Positions 11,351-63,999 of a stretch of 64,000 nucleotides of DNA are shown piece after piece. Below the pieces are notes generated by a model. It was not told the DNA's origin and did not search any database. It was given only the letters and a program-made list of their open reading frames with translations. The DNA is from Iphione sp. A-MEVVRFRX5 (Eukaryota), in contig OZ320317.1 in assembly GCA_976226885.1 (NCBI GenBank), positions 59,706,001-59,770,000 on the forward strand. Reading direction: 5' to 3'. The position numbers and the translations under genes were made by a program. Within the stretch, counting starts at the first letter, position 1; every line of letters starts with the position of its first letter.

Positions 11351-11949
11351 TGTAACGTTTTGGAGTTTGATAAGAGCATTCTGGAATGTTCTGTTTTGGT
11401 TCCCAGCTGATTACTGGTACAAGACCTCGATTTTCACTTTGTTGTGACTTAATTATCAGTGAAAAAACTACTCCTGATGGGAGGGGGACTCCTGGAGCGT
11501 TGGGACTGATCATTAAGTGTGAAGGGGTTTCCCTTATTTAATATTAACTGTTGTTCTGTCTTAATTGCTTCATATATTATTATTCTACTCTTATAAATAA
11601 ACTCTGACTCCATTATGTGGATCAATCAGTTTATCTCTCTTACAAACTCTGACTCCATTATGTGGATCAGTCGGTTTGTTTCTCCTTTGTGTATATAATG
11701 TATACATGCTCTCGAGCCTCAGACATGAGCTCGTCGGTTATTTTCGGAAACGGTGATGTCACGATGACGTCGCATATGACTTCATGTCTGGTTTTGTTGT
11801 ATATAAGATTGGAATAAACTCTTCAGGATTCATTCTGCTAGAATCCACCACGCTGTGATCTGCATCTCGACTTAGCCTTGGTTCTTTCATATGGCTTCCA
11901 AAAGTCTTGAAAGAGGGGACGTGAACTCGCACCTTACTGGGAGGTAACA
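11351..11949 (+). repeat. 5' LTR (599 bp)
   Basis: TGTAACG...GGTAACA; contains a 45-bp-period internal duplication (aaactctgactccattatgtggatca at 11599 and 11644), a TATA-like gtatataag and AATAAA. Confidence 0.95.
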
Positions 11950-11951
11950 TT

Positions 11952-11969
11952 TAGCGACCCGGACGAGAC
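11952..11969 (+). other. Primer binding site, tRNA-Arg-like
   Basis: tagcgacccggacgagac, 2 nt after the LTR; 14/18 match to the complement of a recalled vertebrate tRNA-Arg(CCG) 3' end (TGGCGACCCAGATGGGAC). Confidence 0.65.
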
Positions 11970-12353
11970 TCTGTTTTACAGAGGGAGAACGAGACTATGT
12001 TCTTAGGAGAGCATATGAGACTCTGTCCTAGGGAGCATGGACAGGACAATGTTCTAAGGAGAACGGACAGGACCATGTCCTATGGATAGGGGACGGGATG
12101 ATGTCCCTCAGAGATGTGACGAGATGACAAGATGAACACCAAAGGAGTTGGGGCGCTGCAGTACCAAATGAGGTGCTCCCCACTTTTGAGGTGTTGGTGC
12201 GGTGACTGTTTGCAGTGATGGTAAGATAGGAGAAAACTTTCTATTTCTGTTTCTGGTGTGTATTTATGGTGTGCAAAAATGGTACAGGATAGGGAGGTAG
12301 TTTTTGTTGATGCAACTGAGCAGTGGAAGGAAAACTCTCGAAATATGTTAGTA

Positions 12354-12704
12354 ATGGATGAGGAGAACAGAGCTCGACAAGACGATGAAATTTTGGCCCT
12401 TGCCTCCATTTATGGAAATAATTGGAGTGTAATAAATGAAGTAGGACGAATTTATTGTGTCACGGTATCTGCCAGAAGGGTAGATCGAGTCCTGACTGTA
12501 AAACTTGAGGTAGAGTTTATTCCTGAATATCCTGCGACAGCTTCACCTTTTTATCTGTTAAAAGTTCCATGGATGCGGGATGATCAGAGGACCACGTTGG
12601 AAAGTATGTTAAAGGACACATTCTGTGCCCATATGGGGGAAGTTATTGTCTTTTTGTGGGTAGAGGGAATCCGTGACTATCTGTACCAGTTGGTAGGGGC
12701 ATAA
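12354..12704 (+). CDS. IMPACT: Intronless IMPACT-like RWD domain (116 aa) inside the LTR element
   Basis: MDEENRARQDDEILALASIYGNNWSVINEVGRIYCVTV...KLEVEFIPEYPATASPFYLLKVPWMRDDQRTTLESMLKDTFCAHMGEVIVFLWVEGIRDYL aligns end to end with recalled human IMPACT 1-~115 (QNEEIEAMAAIYGEEWCVID...EYPGTAPPIYQLNAPWL...GESILYLWVEKIRDVL). Frame is intact; upstream in-frame ATGs at 12279 and 12345; stop falls right after the domain. Confidence 0.9.
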   Translation: MDEENRARQDDEILALASIYGNNWSVINEVGRIYCVTVSARRVDRVLTVKLEVEFIPEYPATASPFYLLKVPWMRDDQRTTLESMLKDTFCAHMGEVIVFLWVEGIRDYLYQLVGA

Positions 12705-13726
12705 GTTTGGCACACAGTAGTTTGTTATCCAGAAACAGAATGATGAAAGTTAGGCACATCGTACTCGCAATCCTTTCAACATGCCAACTTTCGAGTGTTA
12801 GGCAGTCATTTCAAGTGAGTGACTGGTGCCTAAAGGGAAGCTCGAAGAAGTAATCAAAGGAGCCTAAGTGGAACGTGCTCAGTAACAAAATTGTAGGTAG
12901 GAGTGAATACGCTTGCGCATGGAGTGCATGGAGCGTACCCCGCTGGGATCATGCTGGGAGCACAGGAGGGTCCAAAGGCTGGTTGTTTGGTTTAGACAGG
13001 CAAGTCTATGGCATATAGTTGTATAGGAGGAGTAGCTTTGACCAGGGAGATGTCAGGCTACATATTTTCCGATGATGGATTGCGTCGGGCCAAGGAGTTC
13101 AACAGCGGTTTGCAGTAGAAATACCCAGGCCTTCAATAAAGGTTGTTCGCAGATCTTCACGTCTTCTGTGGGCTACAGCTCCAGTTTCATCGACCCATCG
13201 TAAGGGACGTCTTCGCGGAATGGGTAGTTGGTGTCTTCTCTGTGACTGAGAGATGGACTCTGCTGCTGACAATTAGTATTTCTTCTCCACCACCCAGTGA
13301 ACATTAGAAGTATTTAGTAAAATACATGGAGAGATGCATATCTGTAAACGTCTTTGTCTTGAGGTATTTTGTAACTGAGAAGAATGCTTATGAACTTGGT
13401 ATTTGTTGAATATATCTTACTTTGTTTTGCCTGTGATCAAGATGAAAGTGTCTGATGTGTTATATTTATGGTTGTAAGTAGGAGCAATACTTACGTATGT
13501 GTTGACAGAGTTACATCGAATTTAAACAAACATTGCTCGGGTTTTGTTAATGAAGAGTGTTTGATTTAAAGAGGTTGGTGTCAAAGTAAGTAATCAGTCT
13601 GAACCAAAAAGGGATGAACAATGTGGGAAGGTATGCCACGCTAACTAACACCATTAACTTTACTAACGGGTAACCTAGCTTAAGGCGTAACATGCATGCT
13701 GGCTTTTTATCCTCAAAAGCTTTTTT

Positions 13727-13738
13727 GAGGGGGAGGAA
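13727..13738 (+). other. Polypurine tract
   Basis: gagggggaggaa directly abutting the TG of the 3' LTR; overlapped by an 8-bp-stem hairpin cctcaaaa-gctt-ttttgagg (13711-13730). Confidence 0.85.
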
Positions 13739-14333
13739 TGTAACGTTTTGGAGTTTGATAAGAGCATTCTGGAATGTTCTGTTTTGGTTCCCAGCTGATT
13801 ACTGGTACAAGACCTCGATTTTCACTTTGTTGTGACTTAATTATCAGTGAAACAACTACTCCTGATGGGAGGGGGACTCCTGGAGCGTTGGGACTGATCA
13901 TTAAGTGTGAAGGGGTTTCCCTTATTTAATATTAACTGTTGTTCTGTCTTAATTGCTTCATATATTATTATTCTACTCTTATAAATAAACTCTGACTCCA
14001 TTATGTGGATCAATCAGTTTATCTCTCTTACAAACTCTGACTCCATTATGTGGATCAGTCGGTTTGTTTCTCCTTTGTGTATATAATGTATGCTCTCGAG
14101 CCTCAGACGTGAGCTCGTCGGTTATTTTCGGAAACGGTGATGTCACGATGACGTCACATATGACTTCATGTCTGGTTTTGTTGTATATAAGATTGGAATA
14201 AACTCTTCAGGATTCATTCTGCTAGAATCTACCACGCTGTGATCTGCATCTCGACTTAGCCTTGGTTCTTTCATATGGCTTCCAAAAGTCTTGAAACAGG
14301 GGACGTGAACTCGCACCTAACTGGGAGGTAACA
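13739..14333 (+). repeat. 3' LTR (595 bp)
   Basis: Differs from the 5' LTR by 6 substitutions and one 4-bp indel by eye. Confidence 0.95.
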
Positions 14334-56440: not shown

Positions 56441-58294
56441 AATGATATGTATAGATCGCGAGAGATTCGATATTTCGGCAGATTCAGTGGATATACACAT
56501 CTAAATGCATGGGGCAATACTTGCTATTGGATGGAAAAGAGTGATGCCCGTGTTATAGTAACGATGTGAAACTGAAATGATTAGTAGGAATTCCATTGTT
56601 ATTTTAAAACACAATTTTGTCACATCCCTTCCCCTTGCCATCCAGTGCATCGTCTGCAACGGACTGGAATGGCGTTCGGTTATAACCATACCACATGACG
56701 AGCCTAAATCAAACGTGTGTGCCACTTTGGCCAGGAGGACTAAATAAATTAGAAGATCCACAATAAGCAGCAAAATGAATATAGAAAAATGTCACTACTG
56801 CGCTCTTCACTTGGTGATAGAGAGACATCAGAAAATGAGTGTTAGTACCTTTCTTTCGTTGAGGCAACACGAGACAACAGCAAGAACACATCGGGGAAAG
56901 CTCTTTCTTATGGGATTTTCATTATGCTGCAGAAGAGGCTTTTGCCTCAGAAGGAAAGGCTTGCTGACTAACGGGCGTTACCCCTACCAGTTACAAGAGC
57001 CTATTCCTCAGCACAAGTGGGCACTGCCCATAAAGTAGAGTCGACCGTCTTATCGTGCCTGATATCATTAATACTCCGGCACAGGGTATTTATGTCGACT
57101 TCTTTCTACTCGCCTAACAAATAAATGTCGCCTAGCCAATAAATGCGGCATGCGATGGGGCAGTTGGGCAGAGCATTGCCTGGCGCGCCTGTACGCGCGC
57201 TACTACTGGACGAATGTGAAATCATACTGACAGATTGGTTAGGACTCGACGCGTAGGTGGATGCATGTGTGTGTATGTGTGTGTCTGTGCGTGTGTGAGT
57301 GAGTGAATGTGTGCAGGGGGGTGTATAGAGTCGGGGGTATGGGAGGCAGAGAACCCTCAACTCATGCCACTCCTCTCGATAAGCCAATGTACTCGTGCAA
57401 GCACATGTAGACCGTACATACCGATATTAGGGGAACAACACTGACGCACGCACGCACGCACAAGCAAGCAAGCAAGCAAGCAAACACGCACGCACGGGCG
57501 AAGTGGAAAAGAGAAAAGAGGCACGCCGCATTCCTGTCAACCAATATACTTCACGACTGCAAAACATACTGCAGAGAGGAAATTGTTTAAAAGCCTGCAG
57601 GAGGCCGGCACGATTTGCATTAGTTGATTGCTCTCTGCAACCAGCAGAACGCCTAACCGAAATATGAATTATACATTTCATCGGCAGACCCCACGATTAA
57701 CTGCGCCAGACCCTCTATTAACCATGGAAAGTTCACGCACATTGGATGGTCCAATCCCACATGGAGGATGATCTTTACAGGTTTTACTTTACCATATTGT
57801 GTAATTAATTGTGGACATGAGAAGGCCAGACTGCCGAGGTAATGTATGGCAAACAGCATACATATCTTTATAGAAATCCATCTAAAACATGAGGGTAGAG
57901 AAGCAGGAAGCTAGTGTTGGACTACGTAGGGTATAAACTAGATGTTTCTATACAACTGCCAGAAACTTCATGCAGATTCAGCGAATAAAAACACGTCCTA
58001 GATAGCGGGACACCATTACAAAGGGTTTTACACCTTGATGGTGACGAACGTCAGGGCAGTATGTGATGTAAGTACACTTCCGAGGGATACCGCGTTGTGG
58101 TCCATATAAAAGCAGGGAATGGAGGCGGGTAATCCGGCTATTCAACTTAAAACATTACTCAAAGAGTCCGTGGATGGAAGTGGTTTTCTCCTTTAAAGGG
58201 GCAATTTCCTCCAAGATCCTAACAGAAGTTCAAGTGGTTCATTTATATGGCAAAACTGCTGTATACTGTTTGGACATCGCTTGGATAGAGGTAC

Positions 58295-58562
58295 TGTAGC
58301 GTTTCCCATTACGTAATAAAGACATGACCAAGGTTTGAACAATGAAGGTTTATTCCAGAGATGTGAACACTACGGTGACTCAGCCTAGACTGACTCCCTC
58401 CTCCCTAGCAGCCCCTTATATACCCCACCCAAAGGCAAGGGAAGGGGGGGGGGATGGTGAGGAGTGCAGCACTCCGCACCCCCGGCGCGTCCTAGTGCAG
58501 CACTCCGCATGCAGCACTCAGCACCGGGGGCGCCTCCTGGTGCCGCACTCCGCAGCACCACA
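58295..58562 (-). repeat. Gypsy 3' LTR (268 bp)
   Basis: Minus strand TGTGGTG...CGCTACA, preceded by PPT GGGAGGGGGCAG (58563-58574); TATATAA at 58406-58412 and AATAAA at 58349-58354. The second LTR and TSD are outside the window. Confidence 0.85.
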
Positions 58563-58665
58563 CTGCCCCCTCCCGAAACGAAACTTTGTCCCCAAAGTTT
58601 TTAACATGCTTCAACATCGGAACAGTCCAACCGGGAACAGTCAACAAGGTACAGGTGATCCAAGC

Positions 58666-61419
58666 TCATCGTAGGGATACCGTCCACACCTCCTTCAGAT
58701 TGGCGACAACACAGTCGCCGTCGCGGGACTGGTCCCAGGTGGTCAACCTGCGCATGGCAGTGCCCCTAGTGAGGTTCTCAAACCTCTGCGCGTGCCAACG
58801 CATTAGCTCTGCTGAGCCTAGTTGGTCCGGCCCCCTCGGCCGGAAACGAATACTCTGGTTGAGAGTCAGCTTCACCTGATTTCCCCCCAACGCCTGGACT
58901 TCCGATCTCCCTGATGCTCGTACGATCTCCCAGCCCTCGGGAGGTGTGGACTGGCAGGAGACGAAGCGTCCCGCCGCCCACACGTACACTTCCTCTGGTA
59001 CTCCGGTTTCTTCGGGCGAGGGTGGGGAGATGTCCTGGTAGGACCAATATTGCGTGGGGGACCGAACGCCCGATGGCAGCCACGGCTGTCCAGCCCCTCG
59101 TCCAAGGCCCGGCGACGACAAGGGGAGTACCCGCGCTGTAGGAGATATGGCTCCTCGTGCCAGGTTCGGCAGGGACGCCCGTCTCTGCAAACGGGGGCCT
59201 GGGGGTGTCCAGCGTGGGGGTGCATCTCCGGAGGGGCCAGGCCGTAGGGGGCGGTCGACGAGGGCCTCCACATTCACACTGTGCACCTGTAGCGGTCCTC
59301 GAGGCGGCGGCACCGCGCCGGCCCCAGGGGCAACTGGCGGCGCCAGTTCCACATTGAAGTCCCTGGGGGGAGGCTCGTGGTCGGGCGCTACCCTGGGTCC
59401 TCCTTCGGCGGTACGGGGTGATCTTGGCGAGCCAGGGGCTGGTTCGAGCTGCCCCGTCTCGTCCTCACGGTCGACAGGTGGCGGCACTCCCGGTCGCTCT
59501 CCAGCTACACCATGGGCTGGCTCGAGCCGCCCGACGACGTTGGTGTCTCCGTTCCTTTCGCCAGTCACCAGCCCGGCGATGACGGGAGGGTTCACCGCGG
59601 GGGGTGTACGTAGCGGGGCCACCGGAACGGCTTCCTCCGATGGCGCTGGTGATGCACTTCCGGTCCCCGTCTCCTCCCGGTCTGGAGCCCCAGGTGGGGG
59701 ACCCGCTGGGCGTGCCAGCAGACCCGTTGCGGAGGAGCCTAGTGAGGGGGACGTAGGCCCGGCCTCTTCCTGGTGGACCGTCAGGGGTCTGCCGACCCCC
59801 ACCCCTGCGTCGCTGGAGACGTCCTGAGGCTCAGTATCCTCCTCAATTGGCGTGAGTCCGCGGCCCGGCCCCCCTGGCGGGGTCACTGCGGAAGCACCTC
59901 TCTGGTCCGACGGCGAGGTGGTCTGTTGGTCCGCTGGGAGCTTTGGAGGCGGCGGGGTGGATGTGTCATCCCGACCTGACGTACTATGCTGGGAGAGGCT
60001 GGCCAGGGTAACCGCGGCCTCCTCCTCTAAGCTTGGCAATTCATCGGAACTGATGTCCTCGACCCAGAAGGAGGTGCCCAGGGTCTCGGCGAACACTCTC
60101 CTTATGGGGCTGATGTCAACCGCGTCGTCCTTCTTGCTGGAAGACCCTGGTGTCGAGGGGGCGGACGCTGCCACCTCCCCTCCGGGGGTCATCTCGCCTT
60201 CCGTGGAGCGGGTTTCACTCCCCGGTCGCTTCCGGGGGAGGGGAGGGGAGTCCTCTGGTGAATCGGAAATAACCACTGGTTGGGACGGCGAGGCCTCCCT
60301 GGACCAGCCTGGTCCAAGGCGGCGGTCTAGGTCTTCCTCAGTGTCCGTGGCTGACCCACGACCCAGCTTGAACGGCGGTTGCCCTGGCCGCGATGACTTG
60401 GATGGGGGCGCTTTCCCTTTTCCTTTTCCGTACGATTTCGTCGCAGCAGGTCCCTTGCCTTTACCTGTCCCCGCGCGGCCTTGATGACGTGTTGCTGCTC
60501 GTCCTCTGCCCGGCGAATACACGGCGTAAGGGGGTTGGGCTGTCGGTCCCGGGGAGGGGCGCGCCGGGGTGGCCCCTTCCTCTTTGCCCTCCTCGACCCC
60601 TGCCTGGGGGGGGGTGTACGACCGCCGCTCACCGGACCCCCGGTCAGCTGGTAGGTTGATCCCTTTTGGGGTTGGGACAAGGGGGAGGGCCCGCGCACAC
60701 GTGGTCGGACGGTCTTTAGGGGCCCTGGCGTAGGTCCGTGGCCGCATCCTCTCTGGCGGTGAAGCCGACCCTCTGCTGGTTCCGGGTCGGCTGCCTGGCG
60801 ATGGTCCGGCCTCGGAGGTAGATCCATGCCCCGGCGTCTCAGACTGGGAATCGGCCGACCCGGCTGACGCGGAAGTAGGCGGCCCCTTGCTGCCCGCGGA
60901 GCTGCTGGGGGTAGCCGGGGCGGAGCGGTCGGTGCCGAGTCGGCGGCGGGCTCGGCGGGCCGATGGGCGCGAGGGTCGAGGGGGTGCTTCCTCGCCTGAC
61001 TCGGCGTCCTCGTCCGAGGACTCAACGACCTCCGCCCTGAGGTCCTTGGTTCTGGCAGTGGCCTCGCGACGGCGCCGCCTGGCCAGTTCTGTCCGCTTGT
61101 CCTCAGGGCAGTCGATAGCGACCCCACGGGTGGGGTTGAACCCCGAGAATCGCACGTAGCGGATGTCCACTGTCTGTGTCATCTGGAGGGATCGGTGTAC
61201 CCCCAGAAGGTGCCGTTTCCAGTCCGTTCGTCTGCGGAAGGCAGTGTTCTTGCACGTTTGGACGGGGCAAATCCAGCCGAACCCCTTAGGGCTGTGCACC
61301 TGCTCCATATGGCGTCGTAGATTTTGCTTCTGTTGGAAACCAGTATCGCACAGATGACATGCGAATGGAGCGGTGGCGAGGGGTACTTCCCCGGAGGCAG
61401 TGGGGGTCTGCTCTGCCAT
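58666..61419 (-). CDS. Putative separately expressed ORF3 (917 aa): two C2H2 zinc fingers, Pro/Ser/Gly-rich region and a C-terminal domain
   Basis: ATG in good context (gtgATGG) 5 nt after a strong acceptor (ctgtcgcttgtctgtttccag, AG at 61426-61425). Fingers FACHLCDTGFQQKQNLRRHMEQVH and WICPVQTCKNTAFRRRTDWKRHLLGVH (61195-61365); Arg-rich patches; no signal peptide or transmembrane segment seen. Confidence 0.6.
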   Translation of the reverse strand: MAEQTPTASGEVPLATAPFACHLCDTGFQQKQNLRRHMEQVHSPKGFGWICPVQTCKNTAFRRRTDWKRHLLGVHRSLQMTQTVDIRYVRFSGFNPTRGVAIDCPEDKRTELARRRRREATARTKDLRAEVVESSDEDAESGEEAPPRPSRPSARRARRRLGTDRSAPATPSSSAGSKGPPTSASAGSADSQSETPGHGSTSEAGPSPGSRPGTSRGSASPPERMRPRTYARAPKDRPTTCARALPLVPTPKGINLPADRGSGERRSYTPPQAGVEEGKEEGATPARPSPGPTAQPPYAVYSPGRGRAATRHQGRAGTGKGKGPAATKSYGKGKGKAPPSKSSRPGQPPFKLGRGSATDTEEDLDRRLGPGWSREASPSQPVVISDSPEDSPPLPRKRPGSETRSTEGEMTPGGEVAASAPSTPGSSSKKDDAVDISPIRRVFAETLGTSFWVEDISSDELPSLEEEAAVTLASLSQHSTSGRDDTSTPPPPKLPADQQTTSPSDQRGASAVTPPGGPGRGLTPIEEDTEPQDVSSDAGVGVGRPLTVHQEEAGPTSPSLGSSATGLLARPAGPPPGAPDREETGTGSASPAPSEEAVPVAPLRTPPAVNPPVIAGLVTGERNGDTNVVGRLEPAHGVAGERPGVPPPVDREDETGQLEPAPGSPRSPRTAEGGPRVAPDHEPPPRDFNVELAPPVAPGAGAVPPPRGPLQVHSVNVEALVDRPLRPGPSGDAPPRWTPPGPRLQRRASLPNLARGAISPTARVLPLSSPGLGRGAGQPWLPSGVRSPTQYWSYQDISPPSPEETGVPEEVYVWAAGRFVSCQSTPPEGWEIVRASGRSEVQALGGNQVKLTLNQSIRFRPRGPDQLGSAELMRWHAQRFENLTRGTAMRRLTTWDQSRDGDCVVANLKEVWTVSLR

Positions 61420-63999
61420 CACTGCTGGAAACAGACAAGCGACAGTGTAAGTCAAGGGTCTATACGTTGTAGGTGCGGTGGCGGCGATAGAACTCCGCAG
61501 CGGCGTAGCATATGCCGCTGCGGCCTCAACGTACGGGTGTTTAGCTTTAGAACTCCGCAGCTGATTTTTACTTGCTGCTGCGGCGTGCAGCTTCGACCTA
61601 TCTTTAGAACTCCGCAACAGAGGTTTACTTGCTGCTGCGGCGTGCAGCTTCGACCTATCTTTAGAACTCCGCAACAGAGGTTTACTTGCTGCTGCGGCGT
61701 GCGACTCCCGATTATCGCTCAATGGCCTGCACGATCGAAGGGTGGTACGAAGCCTTACCTCGCTTGAAACGTGTCCTGTAGAGGGTACGGGAGACGCTGT
61801 GTGTGGTATTTGGGTTTTTGCCCTTACTGATTCGTGCCAACTGGAATTCACAACGAAACTCGGACGATGTACTGCGGCGGACGTCTCACGCTGCGCACTC
61901 CATAGGTTGTCAGGGACGCTGGGGAGAGGGTTCCGGTCGACGGTGGCGCCTCCTATCTTGAGTGCGGGGTTAAGGCGGGCCGCATGACTGCACGTGCTGC
62001 GGAGTGCTAACTCCGCGGCGTCTAATCGTGGTGCGGCGGCAGGAAGGGCCGCATGGTCGCTCGTGCCGCAGGGCCGCAACTCCGCAGCGGCCACCGAAGT
62101 AAACGTCCCGCAGTGCGCCCTCACATCGGGCCTTTCTTGCCTTGCGCCCATCGCTGCGACATCCTCTGTTATCGCTGGCTTGAGGCGATCTGCATGCACA
62201 ACCTTCCTTCGCGTGCCTCTCCCTATCCGATAGACAACCGCAGACAGTCTCTCCTCCACCTGCCACGGGCCCTCCCACCAGCTCTGGAACTTAGGAGATA
62301 CGCCTTTCTTTTTCAGTGGGGTGAAAAGCCACACTTTCTGCCCCACCACGTACTCCTGGGGGCGCACCTTCTGGTTGTACCAGTCCTGCCGCAACTCCGC
62401 TGCCTTATTCAGCTTGCAGGCGACCCACTGGTGGGCTTCCCGGACTTCTTCTTCTACCTGCTGCACATATTCGCCTCTTTCTACAGTTGGTCCTTCAGGG
62501 TACCCATAGCGGAGCTCGGCTGGGGTAGCAACCTCCCGATGCAGGGTAAGCCAGTTAGGGGACACGCCCGTAGTGCTGTGGGGGGTGGCCCGGTATGCAG
62601 CCATGACGAAGGGGAGGGCCAAGTCCCAGTCGGCTCGCCTCTCCTCTCCCAGGGTGGCTAGCATGCTGGCGAGCGTCCTGTTGAAGCGCTCCACCACTCC
62701 GTCGGCTTGGGGGTGGTATGGTGTGGTCCTGGATTTCTCGATCCCCAGCAATCGTAGCACCTCCGCGAAGAGCTCGGCCTCGAAGTTCCTCCCCTGGTCG
62801 GAGTGCAAGGCTCTAGGGGGCCCGAAACGGCACACCACTTCCCTGACAATCACTTCGGCGGTTGCCCGAGCTGTGATTTCCGCCAGTGGGAACGCTTCTG
62901 TCCATTTAGAAAAGTGGTCCGCCACTACTAGAATGTAACGGTGTCCCCGCTCCGTGCGCGGAAGTGGCCCTAAGACGTCGGCTGCTACTAGTTCCCAGGG
63001 CTCGCTGACTTTCCGGTACTGTAGCGGTGCCCTCTTGTTGCGGTATGGCCCCTTTCTACGCTGGCACGCCTGACAAGCTTGTGTCCAGCGCAGGACGTCC
63101 CGCCGGAGTCCAGGCCAGAACCACTTAGTCTTAAGAGCGGCTCCGGTTTTCTCCGCTCCCAGGTGGCCACTCAACACCCCTTCGTGAGCCTCTCGCCAAA
63201 CCTGCTTCCTTAGACTCCTCGGTACGTATGCCTGATACACCAGTCGCGAAGGCTCTTCCTGCCAACATCGCATCAGCACCCCGTGCCGGAGACTCAACCG
63301 TCTCGCCTCGGCGCGCAGCTGGCGCTCTTCCCAGGACAACCCGGATTCGAGTCCTGGGATTTCTCTACCTTCCTCGAGTGCATCTATGATGGCGGCTACG
63401 GGCTCCTCCTCCCGCTGGGCGTCTCTCAGCTGCGGTCGATCTCCAGTTGGGTCCACGGTCACCATGGCCGTGAGCTCCCGCACCGGTTCTTCCCCCTCTT
63501 CACTACGGTGGCACTGTTTACAACGCTGGCGGGACAACCCGTCTGCATTGCCATGCTTCTTCCCGGGCCGGTGGACGATTAACAGGTCATAGCAGAATAT
63601 TTCCTCTAACCACCGCGCCAGCTGCCCCTGGGGCTCACGGAAATTGCACAGCCAGCGCAAGGAGTCGTGGTCAGTGCGTATCTCCACAGTGTGCCCTCCC
63701 ACGTAACAGCGGAACTTCCGTAATGCGAACACCACTGCCAATAATTCTCGACGAGTGACACAATAGTTCTTTTCGGGACGCGTGAGGGTCCGGCTAGCGT
63801 ACGCCAACACCCTCTCCTGTCCCTCTTGCTCTTGGGACAACACCGCGCCGATGCCCGTATCCGACGCGTCCGTGTCGATCAAGAGCCGCCCTTTTGGTTT
63901 CGGGAACCCCAGGATGGGTGCCGTCACCAACCGTTCCTTCAACTCCTCGAAGGCCACTTGGCACTGCTCTGACCACGTGAACTCGGCGTGTCGATCGGC
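58666..63999 (-). CDS. pol: Gypsy pol (RT connection, RNase H, integrase) fused in-frame to a zinc-finger/low-complexity extension
   Basis: RNase H DTDAS..ELLAV..TDH..NADGLSR (~63529-63885); integrase HHCC (HEGVLSGH..CQAC), D-D35-E (AADVLG, HSDQG, VVERFN) and GPY/F-like EGPW, ending ~62176. No stops or frameshifts. Confidence 0.95.
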   Translation of the reverse strand, partial: ADRHAEFTWSEQCQVAFEELKERLVTAPILGFPKPKGRLLIDTDASDTGIGAVLSQEQEGQERVLAYASRTLTRPEKNYCVTRRELLAVVFALRKFRCYVGGHTVEIRTDHDSLRWLCNFREPQGQLARWLEEIFCYDLLIVHRPGKKHGNADGLSRQRCKQCHRSEEGEEPVRELTAMVTVDPTGDRPQLRDAQREEEPVAAIIDALEEGREIPGLESGLSWEERQLRAEARRLSLRHGVLMRCWQEEPSRLVYQAYVPRSLRKQVWREAHEGVLSGHLGAEKTGAALKTKWFWPGLRRDVLRWTQACQACQRRKGPYRNKRAPLQYRKVSEPWELVAADVLGPLPRTERGHRYILVVADHFSKWTEAFPLAEITARATAEVIVREVVCRFGPPRALHSDQGRNFEAELFAEVLRLLGIEKSRTTPYHPQADGVVERFNRTLASMLATLGEERRADWDLALPFVMAAYRATPHSTTGVSPNWLTLHREVATPAELRYGYPEGPTVERGEYVQQVEEEVREAHQWVACKLNKAAELRQDWYNQKVRPQEYVVGQKVWLFTPLKKKGVSPKFQSWWEGPWQVEERLSAVVYRIGRGTRRKVVHADRLKPAITEDVAAMGARQERPDVRAHCGTFTSVAAAELRPCGTSDHAALPAAAPRLDAAELALRSTCSHAARLNPALKIGGATVDRNPLPSVPDNLWSAQRETSAAVHRPSFVVNSSWHESVRAKTQIPHTASPVPSTGHVSSEVRLRTTLRSCRPLSDNRESHAAAASKPLLRSSKDRSKLHAAAASKPLLRSSKDRSKLHAAAASKNQLRSSKAKHPYVEAAAAYATPLRSSIAATAPTTYRPLTYTVACLFPAVMAEQTPTASGEVPLATAPFACHLCDTGFQQKQNLRRHMEQVHSPKGFGWICPVQTCKNTAFRRRTDWKRHLLGVHRSLQMTQTVDIRYVRFSGFNPTRGVAIDCPEDKRTELARRRRREATARTKDLRAEVVESSDEDAESGEEAPPRPSRPSARRARRRLGTDRSAPATPSSSAGSKGPPTSASAGSADSQSETPGHGSTSEAGPSPGSRPGTSRGSASPPERMRPRTYARAPKDRPTTCARALPLVPTPKGINLPADRGSGERRSYTPPQAGVEEGKEEGATPARPSPGPTAQPPYAVYSPGRGRAATRHQGRAGTGKGKGPAATKSYGKGKGKAPPSKSSRPGQPPFKLGRGSATDTEEDLDRRLGPGWSREASPSQPVVISDSPEDSPPLPRKRPGSETRSTEGEMTPGGEVAASAPSTPGSSSKKDDAVDISPIRRVFAETLGTSFWVEDISSDELPSLEEEAAVTLASLSQHSTSGRDDTSTPPPPKLPADQQTTSPSDQRGASAVTPPGGPGRGLTPIEEDTEPQDVSSDAGVGVGRPLTVHQEEAGPTSPSLGSSATGLLARPAGPPPGAPDREETGTGSASPAPSEEAVPVAPLRTPPAVNPPVIAGLVTGERNGDTNVVGRLEPAHGVAGERPGVPPPVDREDETGQLEPAPGSPRSPRTAEGGPRVAPDHEPPPRDFNVELAPPVAPGAGAVPPPRGPLQVHSVNVEALVDRPLRPGPSGDAPPRWTPPGPRLQRRASLPNLARGAISPTARVLPLSSPGLGRGAGQPWLPSGVRSPTQYWSYQDISPPSPEETGVPEEVYVWAAGRFVSCQSTPPEGWEIVRASGRSEVQALGGNQVKLTLNQSIRFRPRGPDQLGSAELMRWHAQRFENLTRGTAMRRLTTWDQSRDGDCVVANLKEVWTVSLR
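61567..61702 (-). repeat. 57-bp in-frame tandem repeat (~2.4 copies) in the integrase-ORF3 linker
   Basis: tttacttgctgctgcggcgtgc starts at 61567, 61624 and 61681; encodes HAAAASKPLLRSSKDRSKL. Confidence 0.9.

Follow-up and report, generated by a model that had tools for sequence, protein, structure and literature searches.

A Ty3/Gypsy retrotransposon of Iphione sp. with a conserved two-finger C2H2 unit, open in frame with pol and predicted to be expressed also from a spliced message of its own

The window analysed here is a 64,000-nt stretch of the 1.18-Gb genome of Iphione sp. A-MEVVRFRX5 (assembly GCA_976226885.1, contig OZ320317.1, 59706001-59770000), at the end of which lies a Ty3/Gypsy (Metaviridae) element of 9,178 bp that extends beyond the window to genomic position 59773472. 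Two long terminal repeats (LTRs), a tRNA primer-binding site (PBS), a polypurine tract and a target-site duplication were found, and Pfam domains follow the order protease-reverse transcriptase (RT)-RNase H-integrase, with gag upstream. Behind the integrase, a 917-codon unit with two C2H2 zinc fingers runs on the minus strand from an ATG at 61419 to a stop at 58666, as an earlier, sequence-only reading of this DNA had described. That reading had taken the unit for a separate gene behind pol, whereas no stop lies between the integrase and this ATG. Indeed, 58666-63999 (-) is a single open frame, and the complete pol counts 2,401 codons with the finger unit as its 3′ end, an in-frame fusion that had been missed. 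The same stretch is also predicted to yield a message for the unit by itself, and this coupling of a Pol tail with an internally started spliced message from one frame is what appears to be new here.

The tail behind the integrase measures about 1,170 aa and starts with a linker, which in the window holds 0 in-frame stops against 8.5 expected, and 9 and 15 in the other two frames. Across the genome, the finger domain and the C-terminal domain of the unit each gave at least 150 matches, with identities down to 39-40%, and many of the matching copies sit in frames of 2,300-2,750 codons. The finger-domain match list favours intact copies and only part of these matches was examined, namely 120 loci (numbered L below), of which 101 were scorable with both landmarks (integrase and finger) and 19 were dropped. 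The stretch from integrase to finger was in frame and free of stops in 82 of the 101 scorable copies, held one stop in 9 and was shifted in 10. For 26 of 26 linkers taken from open frames, shuffling led to an expectation of 6-11 stops; because these linkers had been picked as open, 82/101 is the fairer measure. The predicted introns described below are open as well, those of 20 representatives containing 0 in-frame stops versus 84 and 192 in the other frames. By these counts, the open frame joining Pol to the unit is maintained across families, and since it is kept with the intron included, the unspliced RNA would be translated through. The linker itself ranges from 220 to 580 aa across families and is little conserved, with a ratio of nonsynonymous to synonymous substitution rates (dN/dS) of 0.27-0.77 that is to be read in view of sequences that are hard to align.

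The loci make up about six deep families, and ten representatives from this genome formed one clade in a tree of the RT-to-integrase core, from which 35 of 120 outside proteins were dropped as the core pattern was not located in them. LTR pairs were 97-100% identical in 20 of 20 loci of the near clade; the families are numerous and young. A synonymous divergence (dS) of 0.05 for RT stands against 1.8 for the finger domain between L076 and L077, and L075 and L078 likewise combine a nearly identical RT with a strongly diverged finger unit. The sharing of RT by copies with diverged units (L076/L077) suggests that the accessory module was swapped between families by recombination. In L110 (2400-2600 region; oriented coordinate 4749), a deletion has removed gag, protease, RT and RNase H and fused the PBS to the integrase at a short word that both sides share, while the finger unit is retained. 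This junction and the internal deletions of L093 were considered as spliced copies and rejected, both being interpreted as ordinary deletions.

The architecture of the unit proved much as first described. Its fingers (ligands C21/C24/H37/H42 and C51/C56/H70/H75) show the classical C2H2 ligand spacing and, in the model, a beta-beta-alpha fold, and none of the eight ligands varies among 11 aligned copies, which represent families of 38-83% identity, though the Pfam zf-C2H2 match (E 0.00029, 21.6 bits) stays under its 25.2 cut-off. The finger region was modelled with a predicted local distance difference test score (pLDDT) of 90, and the nearest structures were C2H2 proteins, as weak matches. Tandem C2H2 fingers are canonically joined by a linker of the TGEKP type; the one found here, SPKGFGWI with an invariant G-x-G-W, is not of this type. 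The long low-complexity middle was likewise recovered (671 aa; 17% Pro, 12% Gly, 11% Ser), as was a non-repetitive C-terminus, which comprises 126 aa predicted to fold confidently (pLDDT 85) into two helix-plus-long-hairpin units. The absence of a transmembrane helix was borne out by hydropathy, which peaks at 0.9 over 19 residues and at 0.67 in the N-terminal part and gave no N-terminal hydrophobic signal, no dedicated signal-peptide predictor being used.

Structure and profile searches brought no convincing relative of the C-terminal domain. Foldseek matches (TM-score ≤0.48) lay in the background range and were rejected, and so was a phage tail-terminator-like fold (best Z 7.2, root-mean-square deviation 3.5-3.6 over ~100 aligned residues; background range). 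No homologue outside the own genome emerged among 212 candidates for this domain, six weak matches turning out on re-scan to be repeat proteins. For the finger alignment, 6,594 candidates contained no outside homologue other than generic C2H2 clusters, and contig scans found no relative.

Selection on the unit was estimated from 13 pairs of copies. The dN/dS was 0.03-0.25 in the finger domain (10 pairs estimable) and 0.03-0.08 in the C-terminal domain (11 estimable), compared with 0.14-0.35 in the disordered middle and 0-0.14 in RT, and this conservation among copies indicates that the fingers and the C-terminal domain are under strong purifying selection. A passenger or chance open reading frame without function for the element could draw on the GC content of this DNA (68-69%), which promotes long frames, and on the Pfam scores under cut-off. 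However, values close to those of RT and integrase, together with invariant ligands, point to a functional protein and largely refute this reading, against which the number of genomic matches for each domain also speaks; it can hardly be credited. As judged from these features, the unit is a conserved, non-envelope accessory protein with its own start, and probably nuclear. The sequence-only reading, which had proposed an accessory nuclear regulator rather than an envelope protein, holds to this extent, and a regulatory role is what we infer from the evidence that follows. The unit is real and conserved, and its expression more unusual than first described.

The ATG had been noted to lie 5 nt behind a pyrimidine tract and a CAG. 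This was verified (CAG ending at 61425), with a second CAG 3 nt further on, and the acceptor scored top of the 611 AGs in the element interior by an ad hoc score. It had been regarded as an env-like acceptor fed by a donor in the 5′ LTR or leader. Instead, no strong conserved donor was found near there in 21 loci with our own scoring matrix, and the best donor (61758) lies in the linker. In the near clade, 27 of 32 loci have this acceptor in first place among ~600 AGs, in several sequence versions and with branch-like motifs. The best upstream donor falls within the linker in 26 of 31 loci. In 12/20 loci of the distant families, the linker again holds the top acceptor, 194-377 nt upstream, and the finger ATG is the first ATG to follow it. 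When ten family representatives were compared, 8 had their top acceptor in the linker, which makes up 12-24% of the region, and all 10 had a donor of rank 1-3 there, whereas the antisense control gave a rank 1 acceptor in 0/10 and donor in 1/10.

The predicted intron has a length of 3n+1 in 78 of 82 intact copies, spread over 28 lengths of 148-676 nt; the donor is in phase 0 in 81/82, and the first ATG past the intron is in the finger frame in 72/82, at 2 to 440 nt. With such a length, splicing would shift the frame and uncouple the unit from Pol. It is very probable, as far as these signals can tell, that a small linker intron is spliced in this way and that the unit then starts at its own ATG. 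Several points detract from this. The splice scores are our own heuristics; the acceptor score was devised after the near-clade sites had been viewed, so that the distant families alone test it (12/20 at rank 1), and in the family of L080/L081/L090 the acceptors are weak (rank 5 and 12). The constant 3n+1 phase is partly inherited within a preserved frame, and the loci are related, so that all these counts overstate independence. Finally, transcript, start site, junction and binding are all predictions from the sequence. No intron-less genomic copy was present among the 101 scorable loci, as is expected if the spliced RNA lacks the PBS.

The stretch before the donor has the features of a 5′ exon. 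In 28 loci taken together, the 140 nt that precede the donor contain 3 ATGs, versus 31 in a stretch of the same length further upstream and 49 within the intron, while six control trinucleotides are undepleted there (20-47). A short, scanned 5′ exon would show such a profile. Of 24 loci, 16 have an AGRGGGCGC-type motif at 187-310 nt before the donor, against 0-1 per 3,000 nt of pol; it presumably resembles the CTCF core. From this pattern, the start of the spliced RNA probably lies not at the LTR but within the linker, where an internal promoter would give it a short first exon free of ATG. Such a start is harder to reconcile with a TATA that follows the motif in 4 of the 24 loci and is missing in 20, with the absence of the motif itself from 8, with an ATG 145 nt before the donor of the window copy, and with the finding that upstream of the donor no six-letter word is common to more than 6 of 10 families. 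A TCAGT-like initiator 72 nt before the donor of the window copy was rejected as unconserved over 35 loci.

Alternatively, the intron could be spliced from the full-length, LTR-started RNA, so that Pol ends shortly past the junction; termination-reinitiation, or another splice upstream, would then give access to the finger frame, with no internal promoter at all. In most near-clade copies, the stop that ends the pol frame shifted by the predicted splice overlaps the finger ATG, as TGATG, ATGA or TAATG (window 61417-61424), and stop/start overlaps mark reinitiation in some viruses. Moreover, a YAG-CGTC motif ~160 nt upstream of the donor is a possible further acceptor. The overlap is nevertheless absent in L100, L104 and the distant families; there, stop and ATG are in most cases separated by well over 100 nt. 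The depletion of ATG before the donor would be unexplained if this stretch were internal to a longer message, no strong conserved LTR donor was found, and intron-less copies would be expected unless packaging requires the intron. This alternative is rather improbable compared with the internal start.

The fingers may recognize repeats of the element itself. Residues R-1, D3 and R6 of finger 2 are retained in all families, and under a Zif268-type code, which we take to apply, this finger would read GCG. TGCGG was the most enriched 5-mer of U3 (33 vs 8.8) and the second of the linkers (172 vs 53.5), and lay outside the top ten in pol and in the intrinsically disordered region (IDR), over 13 loci of which two are without U3. 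Its variants follow the families: TGCGGAG in U3 and linker of the near clade, TGCGGCT in L080/L081, and TGCGGCA in L079 and L084-L086, and a family whose first finger has diverged with loss of its Asn/Arg residues has U3 repeats of a GTGCA type. The U3 repeats sit immediately upstream of the LTR TATA, in an enhancer-like manner, and the predicted intron of the window copy contains four 57-60-nt repeats (61482-61712) carrying TGCGGAG. Concordance between U3 and linker was evaluated by permutation in six families with three overlapping sets, giving p values of 0.003, 0.019 and 0.017 at k=6, where the pol and IDR controls gave 0.65-0.84, within an overall control range of 0.18-0.95. This concordance provides moderate, indirect support for self-binding, and binding of the fingers to TGCGG-based repeats in each family's U3 and linker is, in our estimation, somewhat favoured. 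The difficulties are that the concordance, weaker already at k=7 (p 0.004-0.09), loses significance at k=8 (0.08-0.24), that the repeats of L083 and L090 fit poorly, that GCGGA is only 27th in U3, and that GCCGCAGC also codes for Ala runs of the linker. In addition, the code of finger 1 (GAA, on our assumption) mismatches the GCA/GCT variants, the specificity of a pair of fingers is short, and the TGCGG repeats could be sites of host factors. As to RNA structure, each of the intron repeats makes a local CCGCAG/CTGCGG hairpin; the linker as a specially structured RNA was rejected, since it folds no better than shuffles (z -1.07).

This evidence fits activation and repression alike, and a protein that binds its own repeats but represses the element, for control of copy number or timing, would explain all self-binding evidence equally well. 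Yet the numerous and young families, the enhancer-like position of the U3 repeats and the absence of a PxDLS-type corepressor motif from 9/9 units scanned run counter to repression, which is quite improbable.

Pol relatives from elsewhere bear on the role of the fused form. The 120 outside relatives listed (numbered P below) are 36-46% identical, and search hits of this kind make up the trees; those with a name belong to arachnids, fish and a limpet or to entries labelled Em. Ten of them (P0010, P0011, P0013, P0014, P0017, P0019, P0020, P0023, P0024, P0034) have an in-frame tail after the integrase consisting of a Met, two zinc fingers and an acidic disordered stretch, most ending in a beta-rich C-terminal domain. 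This lineage differs from the window element by C2HC+C2H2 fingers and a much shorter tail, and was read as protein only; its C-terminal domain is not detectably homologous to that of the window element (HHalign probability 9.9%). It forms a separate clade; a test on 26 rows neither established nor rejected a joint origin (p-AU 0.25), and P0028 of the same clade ends where the tail would begin. Among related Gypsy Pols, P0016 and P0025 end in a chromodomain (Pfam PF00385) and P0087 in a Macro-like domain, a label given by eye.

Another reading makes the unit chiefly a tail of the integrase, anchoring the integration complex to chromatin or DNA in the way of the chromodomain in chromoviruses, with the separately started form secondary. 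The strict retention of the Pol fusion frame, intron included, fits such a tether, and so do the related Pols that end in a chromodomain or Macro-like domain at the same place and the 4-bp target duplications of L013-L031, which share T at position 2 and are mostly NTAT. A mere tail would nonetheless have no need of a conserved donor and acceptor, an ATG-free leader and an ATG in strong context; the linker that would carry it is variable and poorly conserved, and concordance of U3 and linker repeats is unpredicted. A role mainly as a tether is unlikely, though it deserves to be kept in view. In chromoviruses, as in P0016 and P0025, an extra nuclear module is fused to the integrase C-terminus; the window element differs from chromoviruses by the length of its tail and by the predicted splice sites and the ATG that this tail contains. 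No chromodomain family was found when the full frame was scanned with Pfam, and the element is not a chromovirus.

Taken together, the following mechanism is proposed. The unspliced RNA, whose open frame from pol to the unit is seen in the sequence, would give a Gag-Pol-finger polyprotein through the -1 shift between gag and pol, and the Pol-fused module could be carried in the particle to the new insertion. The free protein, composed of fingers, IDR and C-terminal domain, would recruit host factors through the latter two and activate its own internal promoter and LTR, or shield them from silencing, in the manner of the foamy-virus transactivator Tas. That the unit as a whole is such an internally promoted, spliced nuclear regulator of its own element, made also as a Pol fusion, has in our view an even chance of being right. 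More tentatively, and with rather less confidence, a Metaviridae lineage would have evolved independently a circuit in the style of complex retroviruses, with a promoter in the pol extension, a spliced finger transactivator, co-evolving LTR and promoter repeats and a Pol tail that licenses or places insertions, and a second Gypsy lineage would be a parallel.

Animal LTR retrotransposons are commonly held to rely on transcription factors of their hosts. A sequence-specific regulator encoded by the element itself, with an internal promoter, would bring the logic of complex retroviruses into an env-less retrotransposon, and would be a metazoan counterpart to plant anti-silencing proteins. With about six diverged families in one genome, differing in finger residues and repeats, co-evolution of protein and target would be directly testable. 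The use of a single stretch as open frame, promoter, exon and intron would be an unusual design, masked when the element is annotated with a single long pol.

Known systems offer partial likenesses. Foamy virus has a second, internal promoter, and Tas acts on response elements at this promoter and at the LTR (PMC12789967). The 3′ regulatory gene, the internal promoter and the action on both promoters, demonstrated in foamy virus, would be shared by the window element. Unlike foamy virus, this is an env-less Ty3/Gypsy element and not a retrovirus, and its candidate promoter lies inside a translated pol extension; the protein has C2H2 fingers and is encoded also as an in-frame Pol fusion. By analogy, the element may work like the Tas system without belonging to it. 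The env-F of errantiviruses is a third coding unit between integrase and 3′ LTR that is reached by splicing, as predicted here, but its splicing starts from exons that lie before gag or inside it, and the protein bears a signal peptide, a furin site and a transmembrane helix (PMC12992720, PMC13524379), whereas in the window element the donor lies in the post-integrase linker, no transmembrane segment is present and the unit is in the pol frame. Like the window element, LTR elements of bdelloid rotifers are metazoan elements with a non-env third unit; their ORF3s, for which spliced messages are reported, encode DEDDy exonucleases, GDSL esterases and coiled-coil or transmembrane proteins, and that paper contains no mention of 'zinc', 'fused' or 'in-frame' (PMC5408684). 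VANC of the Arabidopsis VANDAL elements targets short motifs in tandem repeats that differ between families, with demethylation shown (PMC5735166), and resembles the present case as an element-encoded protein with family-specific repeat targets, which are predicted here; VANDALs are, however, plant DNA transposons. Also known are small accessory ORFs of the MDG1 group in Drosophila (PMC11952523), the extra domains that planarian Burro carries (PMC6431247) and accessory domains in general (PMC6338049). 'Zinc' terms are absent from the main text of PMC13524379, PMC6238403 and PMC8556966. In the literature searched, which included the preprint 10.64898/2026.08.24.746577, the layout is undescribed, and prior cataloguing is possible in Repbase, Dfam, GyDB and supplements, which the search did not cover.

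Table 1. Features of the Ty3/Gypsy element and its accessory unit (window coordinates)
Feature	Position	Strand	Basis
5′ LTR, tRNA-Leu PBS, 505-codon gag frame, protease, RT (same element, outside the window)			
RNase H part of pol	63589..63999	(-)	Pfam RT_RNaseH
Integrase: HHCC, core, GPY-type C-terminal domain	62176..63225	(-)	Pfam Integrase_H2C2, rve, Integrase_p58_C
Post-integrase linker, 250 codons, open in pol frame	61420..62170	(-)	stop count, dN/dS
AGRGGGCGC-type motif, ~196 nt before donor, one mismatch here; candidate promoter element	61946..61954	(-)	
ATG-poor stretch, candidate non-coding first exon	61759..61900	(-)	ATG counts
Predicted donor GAG/GTAAGG, first intron base 61758, at pol codon boundary	61753..61761	(-)	rank 1/366 GTs
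Predicted 334-nt intron (3n+1), open in pol frame	61425..61758	(-)	splice scoring
Branch-like motif, pyrimidine tract and CAG of predicted acceptor; first exon base 61424	61422..61456	(-)	rank 1/611
917-aa accessory unit, own ATG (gtgATGg), pol frame	58666..61419	(-)	ORF, copies
Two C2H2 fingers, conserved beta-hairpin, basic helix	61060..61371	(-)	Pfam, alignment, model
Finger 1; finger 2	61294-61359; 61195-61269	(-)	
Pro/Gly/Ser-rich low-complexity region, basic and acidic patches	59047..61059	(-)	composition
126-aa alpha/beta C-terminal domain, conserved	58669..59046	(-)	model, alignment
Polypurine tract	58563..58574	(-)	sequence
3′ LTR, 268 bp, 100% match to 5′ LTR	58295..58562	(-)	LTR pair comparison
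TGCGGAG x3 in U3	58548-58554, 58503-58509, 58472-58478	(-)	within 3′ LTR
LTR TATA; AATAAA	58416-58422; 58349-58354	(-)	
Target duplication GTAC, 4 bp	58291-58294		flanks 3′ LTR

The 5′ part of the element completes this picture. The PBS is that of tRNA-Leu, its matching 3′ end being found in tRNA-Leu(AAG) genes at 2 of 3 loci. The gag frame, whose protein matched no Pfam family, contains a CCHC knuckle and overlaps pol at a G GGA AAC slippery site, which together with a hairpin was present in 4 of 5 loci checked. The first gag ATG sits in U5 (window 58295-58340; L013), and the gag frame crosses the PBS. At this place in U5, GTCATGTC is retained by nearly all families and adjoins TTTATT, the complement of the poly(A) signal. 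Elsewhere, positions 1-50000 of the window contain no ORF of 200 aa, and at 11351-14333 lies a ~2.39 kb tandem duplication, with blocks 98-100% identical and 45-nt repeats inside.

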